From contig OX597826.1 of NCBI GenBank assembly GCA_951406725.2, positions 9,672,001 to 9,736,000 on the forward strand: 64,000 nt of DNA. The letters run 5' to 3'. Positions within the stretch are counted from its first letter, which is position 1. Each line of letters starts with the position of its first letter. Below are positions 17,135-55,738 of the stretch, piece by piece. Origin of the DNA: Octopus vulgaris (Eukaryota). Under the pieces are notes generated by a model. That model was not told the DNA's origin. It worked only from the letters and a program-made list of their open reading frames with translations, and did not search any database. A program made the translations under genes and the position numbers.

Positions 17135-17390
17135 ATCAAAATAAGCAACAAGTATATCCGAGGTAATGTGGTACGATCGAGCAATCTTCAGCCACCTGAA
17201 GATTGCTTGACATTTTATAACTGATGTAATGCTTACAGTGTTTAATAAAATGAAGTAGCATGAAACGATCGTACCACATTACCTCGGATATACTTGTTGC
17301 TTATTTTGATTATAATCACCCCGTGGATTTATATGGATAAAACCATACAAAATTCTGGTGTCTTTGACTTAAGTACCATATTCATCTGAA
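17135..17390 (+). mobile_element. Fold-back element with hammerhead-like motif (Penelope-like/retrozyme candidate)
   Basis: Perfect 45-bp inverted arms 17135-17179 / 17266-17310; CTGAAGA at 17196, GAAA-CGATCG-TA at 17262-17273; TA-flanked. Confidence 0.65.
17196..17277 (+). ncRNA. Type I hammerhead-ribozyme-like motif
   Basis: CUGAAGA, long helix II (UGCU/AGCA, CAUUUUAU/AUAAAAUG, UGUAA/UUACA), GAAA, palindromic ACGAUCGU, GUA triplet, then CCAC; its helix I partner GUGG survives in the inverted arm. Non-canonical U.U at the base of helix II. Confidence 0.5.
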
Positions 17391-17572
17391 TATATATATA
17401 CACATATTAGTCCATTTTGCTGAGTGATTGGTGTTAGGAAGAGAACCCAGCAGTAAAAATCCTGCCAAAACAGTCACAGAAATCTGGTGCAGGCTTCTGC
17501 TTGGCTGGCTCTTGTGGAACCGTCCCACCCATGCTAGCATGGAAGGCAAACATTAAACAATGATGATGATAT

Positions 17573-17957
17573 AGGTGCAGGTGTGGTTGTGTGGTAAGAA
17601 GCTTGCTTCCCAACCACATGGTTCTGGGTTCAGTCCCACTGTGTTGCACCTTAGGCAAGTATCTTCTGCAATAACCAAAGTTTTGTGAGTGGATTTGGTA
17701 GAAACTGAAAGAAGCTCATCATATATATGTATATATTTATATGTGTTTGCCCCCCCCCCCATCATCACCACTTGACAACCAGTGTTGGTGTGTTTACATC
17801 CCTTAATTTAGTAGTTTAGCAAAAGAGACCAATAGAATAAGTACTAGGCTTTAAAAAAATAAGTCCTGGGGCTGATTTGCTTGATTCAAAACCCTTCAAA
17901 GCAGTGCTCCAGCATGGCTGCAGTCAAATGACTGAACAGGTAAAAGAATAAAAGAAT
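17573..17957 (+). mobile_element. SINE family A
   Basis: Full-length homology; partial copies follow at about 18115-18262 and 18549-18770. Confidence 0.85.
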
Positions 17958-20900
17958 ATATGATATATTTGAAAATAAGGATAAACACAAGTTTATGTTA
18001 TTGTTCCTATGTGGTTGTTTGGAGCCTTGCAATAGATGTTCCCAATTCATACAGATGATCGGCCACAATAAGTCCTCAGGGGACACTTTACTGTAACACA
18101 TCACATCCATATGCACAAGCACAGCTATGTGTAAGTTTGCCTCTCAACCACATGGCACTGGTTTCAGTCCCACTGCATAACAAACACTTGGACTAAGTTT
18201 CTCCTTCCATAGACTCAGGCTGACCAAAGCCTTATGAGTGGATTTAGTAGATGGAAACTGGGAAACCATCCAACCCATGCCAGCATCATCATCATCATCA
18301 TCATCATGCACATAAATCATCATCATCGTCGATTAATATCTGTCTTCCAAGCATGCATGAGTAGGACAACTGACAGGAGCTGGGCAGGTAGAAGACTACC
18401 CCCAGACAATTGTGTCTGTTTTGGCAGGATCTTTACAGTTGAATGCCCTTCCTAACACACACACACACACACACACACACACACATATATAATGCATGTT
18501 GTTATATATATATATATATATATATATATATATATATATATATATAATAGGTGCAGGAGTGGCTGTGTGGTAAGAAGCTTGCTTATCAACCACTTGGTTC
18601 CAGGTTCAGTCCTACTGTGTGGAACCTTGGGCAAGCATCTTCTACTGTAACCTCGGGCTGACCAAAGCCTTATGAGTGGATTTGGTAGACGGAAACTGAA
18701 AGAAGCCCATCGTATGTATGTATGTGTGTGTGTGTGTGTATATATTATATTTGTGTGTCTGTGTGTGGTATGTATGTATGTGAGTATATTTCATCAGCAC
18801 ACTAGTGCATACACTGAGAGTTACTCTTTGTTGATGAGGTTAGTATAAAACTGAAATAAGTCCAGAGTTATCTGCTGTACTTGCCATAAAAATGATTGAT
18901 ACTAACTATTAATTAATATTGTATTTTCCTCATCATAATGATTTCTTGGTAGCATTTTAATGCTCACGACATTAAATATATCACTAACTTCACTACCATC
19001 TAGTAAGTTTAACACCCAATTTCAAATCACCAATTAAGTCTGTATATTTTATTGACTCATTATTTTGAACAGCCTGGAGGTGCAACTCACATTTGGTGTG
19101 TATGTGTACATGGCTGTCAGCCTGCTGGAGTGGGGAATTGAGTAGGATATTGGATGAGAAACAAGGAGCTGCAATATGTCACATTCCAATGCATAACACA
19201 AAGCCTGAACGAACAATATCTCTCTTAATCATATCACTAATCTCTGTAGAATGCTTCAAAAATTATTATGGTTTTGATTTTGATATCCAAAATATAAGTT
19301 GAAGCTTATTTACTCAGCAGACTCTAATTATATAGCTAAAGCATTCCTATTAATTAAGGATTTAATATCCAGTATCATTTCATCAGAGACAGAAAAATGC
19401 AACGAACCAATCCTGTGCTCCTCCACTTTTGTATATACATCAAACACCACCACCACCACCACCACCAGTAATTCTATCACTGCAACACACACCATCCATA
19501 TAAGGCTATGAATGATATAGATATGTCACCATGGATTTCATATTCCGATTGATGAAAATTGAATTAAAAACACTCTACAGGGAAAAAATGTGTCAGCTGC
19601 AATGGAGCTAATATATATATATATATATATATATATATATATATATATATATATATATATATATATTATTAGTGCCCAACTTCATGTATGTAATTGATTT
19701 AAAAAGCAGTATATTGGCTTGCAGTGGTGAGTTTTGCTCCTGGAGATCTCTAGAGAAGCCACTTAACTATTCAGATGAAACTAATGGCTCCTTACCATGC
19801 ACACTTTCCTCGTGGCATCAGCTTTGGATTTGGTTACTGAAAGCTGCAGCTGTCTGTTTACATGTGTATGCATCATCCCCAAAACTAACTTTTTGTGCAC
19901 TCACACATACACACGTAGATGCACGGGTGTTAAACCCATCACACAAGTAAATGAGCAAGTCTCACTACGGTAGCTCAGTGAGTTCAAACTAGCCTCTAAA
20001 TCTCTCTAAGATTATTCCTTAGTCTCTTAGAAAAGAAAACATTTGATAATATTGGCCATGGTACACTACTCTAGAAGGAAAACACCCACTACACTCTCAG
20101 AATGGTTGGCATTAGGAAGGGCATCAAGCTGTAGAAACCACGCTAAATCAGATTGAAACCTGGTGCAGCTTACCAGTTTTCAGTTAAGCCATCCAACCCA
20201 TGCCAGCATGGAAAATGGGTGTTAAATGATGATCACACACACACAGGCTCAGATATAGGAATAAATGTACCACTGACCAGGGTAACTTGATACATCGTGA
20301 TTTTGCAATTTAGTGAAAAGTACTGCCACAAGCTTCATCAGCCAACATTAAATGAAAGTCAGTGTGAATCTTTCCACATTAAATATATTTATAACATTAA
20401 AGTCATGATGTGTAAAAATGTGGTGAAACTTCAAGGGAATTCAAATGTTCAGCATTTAACCGCAATATCACATTGCAAAGTCCATCGGCACACACAATGA
20501 CAGTTTTCAATATGTAATCTAAAGCTCAGAACATTAGCTTATTGTAAACTCCTGTTTAAAATGTCCTTCTTGATGCATTAAAAAAAAATATTTATGAGCA
20601 TTTAAAAAATGGGGCAGTTTTAATGGAAAAAAAAGAAGAAGAAAAAAAGAATTCTATAGAGGTAATCCTCATTTGGTTGGTATTAAAAAGGCTAAAGTGT
20701 ATTTTTCACAGTTATTCAGAATGAAAGATTACTAAAAGAGATATTAGGAATTTGTGAGTCTCATGCTTTTTCCATAAATTTGAATTATAATAATCCATGT
20801 AGAATATATTCTGTCAGTTTTTAAATTATCAGATTGCTCTGATGTATATGATAACTCCATAATGTTCTTGTTGTTCAGCCCCAGAATATCTCTGGTTAAG

Positions 20901-21768
20901 AGACTGAAAAGCATTCAAGCTCTGTATTTTCTATGTTTGTTTTCTTTTCTATTTTTCTTCTTCTTTTTTTTTTGCCCAGTTCCTGCATCTTTTAGTACAT
21001 TTATTCTTTTATGTCGTTTTCCCCACTTTCAAGACAGCAAAAGATGTAATCTGAGTGAGATTCTACCAGGTCAAATGAGCAGTTTTCTTTCTTTTTTGCT
21101 CCTGTGACAGCTATTTCCATTGTGCTACTTGAAAGGACTTAATACTTCATTGCACCAGATTAAACAGCTGAACTATAAGAGTGTGAAGTCAAGTAGAAGG
21201 GGAAATACCAATAGAGAGTCAGTTGTACTAAGTAACCCCTGGACTGATTTCCTATGCTGTTTACATCTTAGTGGATAGAGCTATTTCAGGGAGTTGATTA
21301 TCTCAGACAAGCCTCGTAATTCATACAAATATCCAAATTTACTCAGCCTTCCAAATATATCATCATCTTATCATAAGCAAATATAAATCATTAAACAACA
21401 AATTTAAACAAATGCACACACATACAGAGACTCAGGCCTGTCTGTGTTTCTTACCATGTGATTTGGGGTTCAGTCCCACAGTGTGGCACCTTGTAGCTGC
21501 CATCTGACTGCAGCTGTAATAAAGGTATGCCTTATGAGTGAAATTTGGTAGATAGAAACTGTACTGAAGCCTAGATGTGTGTGTGTGTGTATGTATAAGT
21601 ATTTGTATGCATACATATATACATCAGTGTGTGCATATATCATCATCATCGTTTAACATCTGCCTTCCATGCTAGCATGAGTGGGGCTATATATATATAT
21701 ATATATTTATGTACAGGGGTTGGACAAAACCAGTACGAGTAAAGGGATACATAACAGACACACAGATA

Positions 21769-54408: not shown

Positions 54409-54556
54409 ATATATATATATATATATATATATATATATATATATAGATAGATAGATAGATAGATATTTATATATATATAGATAGATAGATAGATAGATAG
54501 ATATTTATATATATATAGATAGATAGATAGATAGATATTTATATATATATAGATAG

Positions 54557-54888
54557 ATAATTATAAATAAGGGTTAAATGCAACAAGTTGCTCAAAACAC
54601 ATACCGAAAATATTAGAAATAGCAGCAAAATTGGTCACCATTTCCTCTACTAGTAAAAAGTCTCCACAAACAAACTTGTGGAGACTTTTTACTAGTAGAG
54701 GAAATGGTGACCAATTTTGGCTGCTATTTCTAATATTTTCGGTATGTGGTTTTGAGCAACTTGTTGCATTTAACCCTTATTTATAATTATTATAACCCTT
54801 ACCTAATATGGTCTTTTCCATACCGATAAATCTACTAGGTGAAATTGATTAATTTTATTAAATTAATTATATTCCACCCTTTATTGTA
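54557..54888. repeat. Near-perfect hairpin with 113-bp arms plus an unpaired AT-rich tail, in a TA/TAGA array
   Basis: 54557-54669 vs 54676-54790, 6-nt loop, two 1-nt indels. Confidence 0.85.
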
Positions 54889-55035
54889 TATAGATAGATA
54901 GATAGATAGATATTTATATATATATAGATAGATAGATAGATATTTATATATATATATATATATATATATATATATTTATATAGATAGATATTTATATAGA
55001 TAGATAGATATTTATATATATATATATATATATAC

Positions 55036-55738
55036 GTTTAAATATTTGTTGTGCAAGATTTTTTATGTGAAGTCGTGTGTTGAAACAGATATTGTTATAT
55101 TTCGGAATGGTCATATTGCCAGTTTAGCCAATAAAAACACACGCACTATATATTTGGTGTTATTTTGCTTCAGTGATATTTATTTTTTACATTAATCTTA
55201 ATCTTATTTCAGCCAAAGTTCTTTCGTCACACTCCTGTGACCGCATCAGTGGTCCTTTGTTTTCTTCTCACTTACTTGTGTCTCTCCTTACTAACCGTCA
55301 GCCATTTTGTATTTCTATTGTATGTCTTCATTTGCACATGCTTATATCTCTATGTGCGTCTATGTTTATTTAGTGTGTGTGTGGGGGGGATGCCTGTAAT
55401 ATTTGTATCTTCTGGTTATATACATTCTTGTAATTTGTATTTTGTTTTTGTTGTTGTTGCCATAAACATAGACGCACATAGAGATATAAGCATGTGCAAA
55501 TGAAGACATACAATAGAAATACAAAATGGCTGACGGTTAGTAAGGAGAGACACAAGTAAGTGAGAAGAAAGCAAAGGACCACTGATGCGGTCACAGGAGT
55601 GTGACGAAAGAACTTTGGCCGAAATAAGATTAAGATTAATGTAAAAAATAAATATCACTGAAGCAAAATAACACCAAATATATAGTGCGTGTGTTTTTAT
55701 TGGCTAAACTGGCAATATGACCATTCCGAAATATAACA
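55036..55738. mobile_element. Young fold-back element, arms of about 275 bp, hammerhead-like motif in both arms
   Basis: About 55093-55368 is the near-perfect reverse complement of about 55462-55738; CCA-CTGATGC-G-GTCAC..GTGAC-GAAA-GAACTT-TGG at 55579-55618; embedded in (TA)/(TAGA)n. Confidence 0.75.

Follow-up and report, generated by a model that had tools for sequence, protein, structure and literature searches.

We describe here six inverted-arm units (E1 to E6) in a 64,000-nt stretch of Octopus vulgaris DNA (NCBI GenBank assembly GCA_951406725.2, contig OX597826.1, positions 9,672,001 to 9,736,000 of the forward strand; hereafter the window). These units are very probably truncated 3' ends, i.e. 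a pseudo-long terminal repeat (pseudo-LTR) plus a tail, of endonuclease-bearing Penelope-like retrotransposons (Penelope-like elements, PLEs), with two inverted copies lying head to head in each. We favor this reading because the layout of all six units fits the published PLE arrangement, in which an inverted 5'-truncated copy is accompanied by a 30–40-bp tail at one end and, in Naiad and Hydra families, (TA)n targets are preferred (PMC8557442). We have little doubt about a PLE origin for E1, E3, E4, and E6; for E2 and E5, judged by layout only, the same origin is reasonably likely.

Self-BLAST and alignments across the window verified inverted arms in all six units, with arm lengths ranging from 30 to 277 nt. 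Arm identity is 64/68 over the aligned part of E1 (span 17130–17314, in which the minus copy is short by 57 nt), 124/136 in E2 (27078–27357), 194/221 in E3 (32647–33043), 29/30 in E4 (arms 34732–34761 and 34957–34986), 122/127 in E5 (54557–54790), and 275/277 in E6 (arms 55093–55369 and 55462–55738). In every unit, surplus sequence continues past the arm on a single side, for 57–147 nt. These results bear out the original prediction, made from the sequence alone, of six inverted-arm elements with a one-sided terminus, with the correction that E3 begins at about 32574 and not at 32590. The features of the units are as follows.

17135–17195, minus strand: E1 tail-less copy, which opens with the helix I 5' strand and first core half of its hammerhead-like motif and then lacks 57 nt, including GAAA
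17196–17310, plus strand: E1 second copy, which begins at the hammerhead core and has a 4-bp helix II, a long loop, and a Hydra-clade-like architecture
17317–17391, unstranded: E1 one-sided extension, either a tail or a short element of its own, with 65/75 identity to the solo piece at 54314–54406
26991–27343, unstranded: E2, with arms at ~27088–27200 and 27226–27343, an extension from 26991 to ~27075, TA arrays on both sides, and no CTGANG core
32563–32573, plus strand: left copy of the E3 target-site duplication, 10/11 identical to 33071–33081
32574–33070, unstranded: E3, the older E3/E6 member, with a tail from 32574 to ~32630 and arms that meet near 32845
32780 (minus) and 32912 (plus): E3 cores; the coding frame in the E3 tail is on the minus strand
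33071–33081, plus strand: right copy of the E3 target-site duplication
34585–34761, minus strand: E4 tailed copy, a 30-nt arm plus a 147-nt extension with a TA array at its end
34762–34983, plus strand: E4 tail-less copy, with a hammerhead-like motif from 34843
54314–54406, unstranded: solo copy of the E1 extension, between TA arrays and immediately left of E5
54557–54888, unstranded: E5, with arms at 54557–54670 and 54677–54790, an extension at 54791–54888, TA/TAGA arrays on both sides, and no core
55036–55461, minus strand: E6 tailed copy, 426 nt, comprising a 92-nt unduplicated 5' part (55370–55461), an arm (55093–55369), and a 57-nt tail (55036–55092)
55036–55114, minus strand: E6 open frame, from the ATG at 55114 to the element end, ~27 codons
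55462–55738, plus strand: E6 tail-less copy, 277 nt, with a core at 55582 and (TA)n directly at its end

The cores fix the polarity of E1, E3, E4, and E6, in which the copies are head to head and the cores read outward; the polarity of E2 and E5 is assumed. By sequence, the units fall into five groups (E1, E2, E3/E6, E4, and E5), with local matches of 75–88% between E3 and E6. In a self-comparison of the window, no similarity was found between other pairs of the six units, except that the E1 extension recurs alone at 54314–54406. Where at least three distinct families had been proposed, the count is five groups, with E3 and E6 belonging to one family.

TA or TA/TAGA arrays lie on both sides of five of the six units, as had been claimed (those of E1 are short), in a window of which 7.2% falls within 10 nt of a (TA)4+ run. 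The sixth unit, E3, carries an 11-bp direct repeat (10/11; 32563–32573 and 33071–33081) at both of the ends predicted from E6; as a null for this duplication, 30 of 3000 random window pairs match likewise anywhere in 36 × 41 nt. The bases at the tail boundary are AT-rich in all six units, in a window with a GC content of ~28–40% and 112 tandem-repeat rows, many of them of TA type, and an AT-rich tail boundary may aid a second priming event. At 54314–55830, one TA/TAGA array, the segments of which have a common higher-order pattern, holds three unrelated pieces (the solo E1 extension, E5, and E6), which suggests repeated insertion into a single microsatellite. Just after E6, a piece of ~115 nt (55830–55945) lies between TA arrays and is a candidate for a further, highly truncated insertion.

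The E3/E6 family can be followed in sequencing runs, which were compared at 80% likeness with the non-redundant E6 copy (55036–55461) as the reference, three runs as contigs and one as raw reads. The three contig runs hold 12,158, 6,436, and 6,029 family-matching contigs, summed contig depth not being a copy number, and the family is plainly abundant. Contigs continue across 55369/55370, and the 92-nt spacer is therefore part of the tailed copy. TA-rich loose ends are found before 55043/44 in all three contig runs and before 55089 in 30 contigs of run X5; the family therefore has two fixed ends, and the alignment of E3 with E6 places the same two ends in both units, the tail-less arm included. 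The inner junction is variable between copies, since the opposite-strand joints (5 among the 15 joints listed) lie at five distinct position pairs, although these joints are thin, amounting to one or two contigs per run at 80% likeness, without stated polarity and with 15 of 23 joints listed. The inversion points of E3 and E6 also differ, so that variable 5' truncation is seen both inside the window and in the contigs. The two E6 arms agree at seven of eight listed minority states, one of which is held by at most 1% of depth; these shared rare variants imply that the arms came from one source or were later homogenized.

The tail of this family contains an open frame. Read on the sense strand, it begins with an ATG at 55114 and extends to the element end; ~7 of its codons are common to the two arms and another 20 belong to the tail, and these are likely the first codons of the open reading frame (ORF) of the element. 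Over 22 codons, E3 and E6 differ at eight, five of which are synonymous (null mean 1.7, P = 0.013; the test has eight differences only, in a frame picked after inspection), compared with one of seven in each of the other two sense frames. The frame region is 62/73 identical between E3 and E6, and the stretch from the ribozyme-like motif to the ATG holds several indels. Of 11 read variants listed inside the frame, six are third-position synonymous changes, two are conservative (L to F/I), and three are CpG decay, one of which leads to a stop. To judge by these substitution patterns, the E3/E6 tail appears to be protein-coding, and the claim that the families are non-coding is not supported here. 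Such a comparison was possible for E3/E6 and for the E1 extension, with E2, E4, and E5 being single-copy.

Protein searches point in the same direction. A profile search recovered Octopus bimaculoides UniRef A0A0L8I3J7, which begins with the same Met as the tail peptide and matches it at 22/26, and phmmer against 1.84 billion representatives gave two matches, one of which is an unnamed 79-aa Logan ORF (62%, E 2.7e-4) that holds the translated core upstream of the tail peptide. A phmmer match to P0002, a Plasmodiophora repeat protein (38% identity in six stretches), was discarded as a repeat artefact, and the ESM Atlas returned no usable match to a 30-aa peptide.

As had been predicted, four of the units contain outward-reading hammerhead-like cores of the form CTGANG[A/C]: E1 (17196+, 17191−), E3 (32912+, 32780−), E4 (34843+), and E6 (55582+, 55249−). 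In both E1 and E4, the helix II region is long, the triplet is GUA, and helix III forms a perfect 8-nt palindrome, with predicted homodimers of −10.0 and −10.3 kcal/mol, respectively. In the plus copy of E1, the palindromic helix III is at 17265–17272, with cleavage predicted after 17273 and the 3' strand of helix I at 17274–17277; in E4, helix II pairs at 10/11 bp, the palindromic helix III is at 34908–34915, cleavage is predicted after 34916, and helix I is interrupted. In E3 and E6, an unpaired G precedes a 6-bp helix II, the closing pair is G-C, helix I is short and bulged, and helix III has 2 bp and is an imperfect 6-mer with no stable predicted dimer. For example, the tailed copy of E6 has a minimal hammerhead-like motif at 55255–55211, with a 6-bp helix II, the unpaired G ahead of it, and predicted cleavage after 55216. 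Helix II is the same in E3(+) and E6, with differing loops, and among the 40 of 57 rows of E6-family variants that are listed, none is in the helix II stems and one is in loop 2. The majority triplet in the contigs is CUC (77–90% of depth), and both E6 arms of the window have CUU.

Hammerhead-like motifs exceed chance, because descriptor counts lie above the null with both a relaxed and a strict descriptor. The relaxed descriptor matches four sites in the window (E4, both E6 arms, and 10801−) against a null of 1.1 per 128 kb, and with a helix I of at least 3 bp it matches the two E6 arms only (null 0.1); it has no match at E1 and E3. The strict descriptor, with a 4-bp helix III, was modeled post hoc after motifs of the Hydra clade (PMC8557442, File S2); E1 and E4 are its only two matches (null 0.06 per 128 kb), and none of 100 null sequences had two matches. 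When compared with shuffles, E4 folds better (z = −2.5) and is the sole hammerhead region to do so. Every copy in the window is defective, which speaks against ribozyme function: each E1 copy is missing a part, helix I of E4 is interrupted, the E3 arms each have core or helix changes, and E6 has a C at core position 9. The hammerhead would be a passenger of the pseudo-LTR, in copies that look degenerate and whose cleavage is predicted. Within E1, the first core half and the start of helix II are present twice in 17196–17240 (at 17196 and, as a variant, at 17221), as in an internal duplication; the second core-like word at 17221 was dropped as a ribozyme candidate, since its position 9 is U and it lacks a partner strand for helix I. 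Matches of the units to Rfam microRNA models were set aside as generic hairpin or TA-repeat matches below the cut-off.

A number of results weigh against a PLE origin, in addition to the thin joints and the small codon sample given above. No CTGANG[A/C] core was found in E2 or E5 by a motif scan of the window. The type I hammerheads of the original prediction were not recovered at threshold by Rfam Hammerhead_1, for which E4 gave a match below threshold (12.8 bits against a cut-off of 34, E 2.8) and E1 and E6 were unmatched; additionally, no hammerhead is among the 150 of 291 rows listed from an Rfam scan of the whole window, the one scan that covered E3. The hammerhead regions of E3/E6 and E1 fold no better than shuffles (z from −1.3 to +0.6), and in the E6 subfamily, the canonical A at core position 9 accounts for only 16–31% of depth, in reads chosen by likeness to E6 (E3 itself has A). 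The raw-read run X23, which has the same species label as X1, yielded three reads of 12.9 million (1,934 million letters), all less than 90% alike, which is surprisingly few for a family of such abundance. Coding bias was absent from the E1 extension in any of six frames. No reverse transcriptase (RT) or GIY-YIG ORF linked to the units was found in metagenome, prokaryote-genome, and viral contig scans: exact-pattern scans of metagenome and viral contigs gave no matches, and with peptide profiles, metagenome contigs returned 373 pattern matches, prokaryote-genome contigs 136, and viral contigs 433, none confirmed. The portion of the ORF present in E3/E6 is only the ~27 N-terminal codons, and none of 69 candidates is a longer protein with the N-terminus of the tail. 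The sole named protein with the tail peptide, A0A0L8I3J7, runs on into SWIM/YqaJ-type sequence and not into an RT. Finally, 10 short DNA and three peptide motifs of the units, checked against the Octopus PLEs in the supplement of PMC8557442, matched none of them, in a check that gave three chance matches of one 8-mer and in which line breaks can conceal matches.

How might such units arise? We propose that a GIY-YIG endonuclease would cut both strands at a (TA)n or AT-rich site, with the 11-bp duplication observed at E3 recording the stagger; inside TA arrays, such a duplication would be invisible. Each DNA 3' end would then prime reverse transcription on uncleaved element RNA, with RT starting at one of two fixed internal sites inside the first ORF codons to yield a tailed and a tail-less copy. 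Both cDNAs would stop early and join at their 5'-truncated ends; the variable end points are observed in E3/E6, and early stopping would be their cause. In E6, the two arms would come from one source, or have been homogenized, as the rare variants that they share indicate. In this scheme, enzyme, RNA template, and step order are inferred. For the PLE of Anolis, both strands are cut and extended at AT-rich DNA, two RT starts in the first ORF codons bound the tail, and the hammerhead is not needed for insertion and cleaves only with the protein (PMC11167929). The Penelope-like origin, head-to-head polarity, and (TA)n targeting that had been predicted are supported, and priming at both ends of the break, also predicted, has an in vitro precedent in this Poseidon PLE (PMC11167929).

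A different route to the same PLE units is a serious, if less probable, alternative, namely that the inverted arm arose by fold-back (self-primed) copying of one cDNA, or was later homogenized by gene conversion. The E6 arms, at 275/277 identity and with rare variants in common, fit such a route, as does a short perfect palindrome at the E1 junction, and self-priming has been proposed for PLE inverted junctions (PMC3846280). Two points favor two-strand priming over fold-back: in vitro, a PLE protein carries out extension on both strands, with two start sites in agreement with the tail (PMC11167929), and E3 and E6 have a common end point of the tail-less arm, adjoining TA in 30 contigs, which fold-back alone does not predict.

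We consider it unlikely that the units are non-autonomous, non-coding short families, retrozyme- or SINE-like, that use borrowed PLE enzymes and owe their coding signal to an ancestral PLE. Non-autonomous PLE derivatives have been reported (PMC8557442; bioRxiv 10.64898/2026.07.22.740005), the E1 extension is without coding bias, and no long copy is in the window, with contig depth continuing to 55425 and the view ending at 55461. On the other side, synonymous bias across subfamilies indicates translated source elements for E3/E6, and 5' ends differ from copy to copy. Animal retrozymes are, by definition, head-to-tail tandem repeats (PMC7229834), and the tandem-repeat listing of the window has no head-to-tail tandem of 150–450 bp at the coordinates of the units, where there are inverted pairs only. 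The retrozyme-like character that had been claimed for the units is thus not borne out for any of the six.

It is improbable that the units are DNA transposons of the fold-back/miniature inverted-repeat (MITE) or Mutator type, with long inverted repeats at their termini, TA-repeat targets, and hammerhead-like motifs present by chance or capture. Long inverted arms and the core-less E2 and E5 would suit it, and an 11-bp duplication would fit Mutator-type elements too. The inverted repeats, however, are not terminal, with a 57–147-nt extension at one end of all six units, and they do not behave as fixed-length terminal inverted repeats, given arms of 30 to 277 nt and junctions that vary inside the E3/E6 family. 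Moreover, the strict hammerhead descriptor matches just two elements in 128 kb, and the E3/E6 terminus is apparently coding.

The protein that shares its start with the E3/E6 tail calls for a closer look. The remainder of A0A0L8I3J7 matches a YqaJ protein (83% in BLAST, with 78% of the query covered; Pfam YqaJ, E 9e-21), its YqaJ relative P0005 starts exactly at the join, and a second Octopus gene model has the same YqaJ-type segment together with SAP and Kazal domains. Because P0005 begins at the join and the second model has SAP and Kazal domains, A0A0L8I3J7, a single automatic gene model, is more likely chimeric. It is very improbable that the ORF start of E3/E6 serves as first exon to a SWIM–YqaJ (PD-(D/E)XK) nuclease gene, with the family residing in a mobile element that uses that nuclease, or that a PLE-like element splices its ORF start onto such a lambda-exonuclease-fold nuclease in place of GIY-YIG: what speaks for it is the coupling of tail peptide and YqaJ-matching segment in A0A0L8I3J7. 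Against it, an element with thousands of copies is likely to supply a first exon by chance. The Octopus gene models P0004, P0005, and P0006 have a common SWIM/YqaJ-type segment and N-termini that are unrelated. This suggests that a repeated mobile element with YqaJ, which we take to be Kolobok-like, seeds chimeric predictions. In the ESM Atlas, P0004 gave only unnamed clusters and a SWIM lead at 0.84.

Among known systems, the PLE clades provide the closest counterparts to the units, and we consider the units likely to be new families of this known class. Published PLEs already show the layout, a one-sided tail at the ORF start, short duplications, minimal hammerheads, and targeting of (TA)n, and the units are in this sense an expected PLE signature. 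Octopus is already catalogued as having (TA)n-preferring Hydra and Naiad families (PMC8557442), and 31 PLE families are reported as recently active in octopus (PMC13282606). The literature searched describes none of these families; they may already carry names in Repbase, Dfam, or the O. vulgaris library of PMC13282606.

E3 and E6 probably derive from a family in which the hammerhead is minimal and the tail overlaps the ORF, as in Penelope/Poseidon (Pen2a_Av of Adineta vaga, PMC3846280; PAc of Anolis, PMC11167929). Shared features are head-to-head pseudo-LTRs with a single-copy tail, the first ORF codons in pseudo-LTR and tail, AT-rich targets, and a hammerhead in the pseudo-LTR. In the Adineta PLE, which has palindromes at its head-to-head junctions, the pseudo-LTR covers the first 12 aa (22 with the tail) and duplications are of 8–10 bp (PMC3846280); the corresponding figures are ~7 and ~27 codons in E3/E6 and 11 bp at E3, the last being close to the rotifer range. 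The 57-nt tail of E3/E6 (up to 147 nt in other units) compares with the 30–40 nt published for PLEs, and the Met is ~100 nt downstream of the predicted cleavage site in E3/E6 and upstream of it in PAc (PMC11167929). Unlike Penelope/Poseidon, the majority core has a C at position 9, and an ORF body was not found. The minimal hammerhead ribozymes of metazoan PLEs also have an unpaired base before helix II, a G10.1-C11.1 pair, and a short helix I, as in E3/E6, and a (near-)palindromic helix III, as in the core-bearing units; in Schistosoma, paired minimal hammerheads lie on opposite strands 100–700 bp apart, a layout with counterparts here (PMC4209133). The literature searched lists no such ribozymes for the present families.

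E1 and E4 probably come from Hydra-like, TA-targeting families. Like Hydra-clade elements (Penelope-5_HM, Penelope-13_HM, and Hydra-1_Obim; PMC8557442), they have a (TA)n target, a helix III of 3–4 bp, and additional bases at two places, behind the first core half and ahead of GAA, and for Penelope-13_HM an inverted 5'-truncated copy is noted, as in E1/E4. Loop 2 is ~35–50 nt in E1/E4 versus 3–10 nt in the listed Hydra motifs, and helix III of E1/E4 is loopless. The supplement sequence of Hydra-1_Obim has no match to the short motifs of the units. The clade itself is defined by RT and endonuclease motifs, namely RWK and DKT, a CxCX5C linker, and no CCHH. An inverted pair at 43581–43805 is decayed (arms 69%) and has GAA and a 4-bp helix III motif at 43740, with no intact first core half; it may represent an old unit of Hydra type.

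For E2 and E5, the likely origin is either truncation beyond the ribozyme or descent from ribozyme-less, Naiad-like families. Naiads (Naiad_Obim, Naiad_Ovul, and Naiad_Omin) share with them (TA)n targets, tailed inverted truncated copies, and, as described in PMC8557442, the lack of a canonical hammerhead, but the cephalopod Naiads of that paper are long-dead remnants, whereas the E5 arms are 96% identical, and there is no sequence match to those listed. The animal non-LTR retrozymes (PMC7229834; bioRxiv 10.64898/2026.07.22.740005) are also short, with a type I hammerhead and kinship to PLE pseudo-LTRs, but are 150–450-bp non-coding head-to-tail tandems, in contrast to the inverted pairs, variable inner ends, and coding E3/E6 terminus seen here.

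If our reading is correct, the units preserve in a genome the outcome of the priming on two strands, from two start sites, that has been shown in vitro for one lizard PLE, and up to five unrelated families repeat this outcome inside 64 kb. The tail peptide provides a handle for locating a full-length partner, and repeat annotation could misfile units of this kind as MITEs or microRNA hairpins. Additionally, octopus has an unusually high double-stranded RNA (dsRNA) content and A-to-I hyper-editing (PMC5625713), and high-copy, near-perfect hairpins of 60–280 bp could feed octopus dsRNA and A-to-I editing.

The window has other repeats as well. Open frames lie at 43996–44355, 60065–60370, and 62863–63180; a Pfam search of these three gave no RT or GIY-YIG, the first two being unmatched and 62863–63180 giving C2H2 zinc-finger matches below the cut-off, and the frames resemble long interspersed element (LINE) and Tc1/mariner remnants. 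At 22554–22680, there is a 127-nt palindrome (84%) with neither TA flanks nor a core. A dispersed repeat of ~400 nt, presumably an octopus short interspersed element (SINE), is present in more than 10 copies on both strands, e.g. at 3214–3628, 28588–28999, and 52469–52850, often with an internal TA or CA array.

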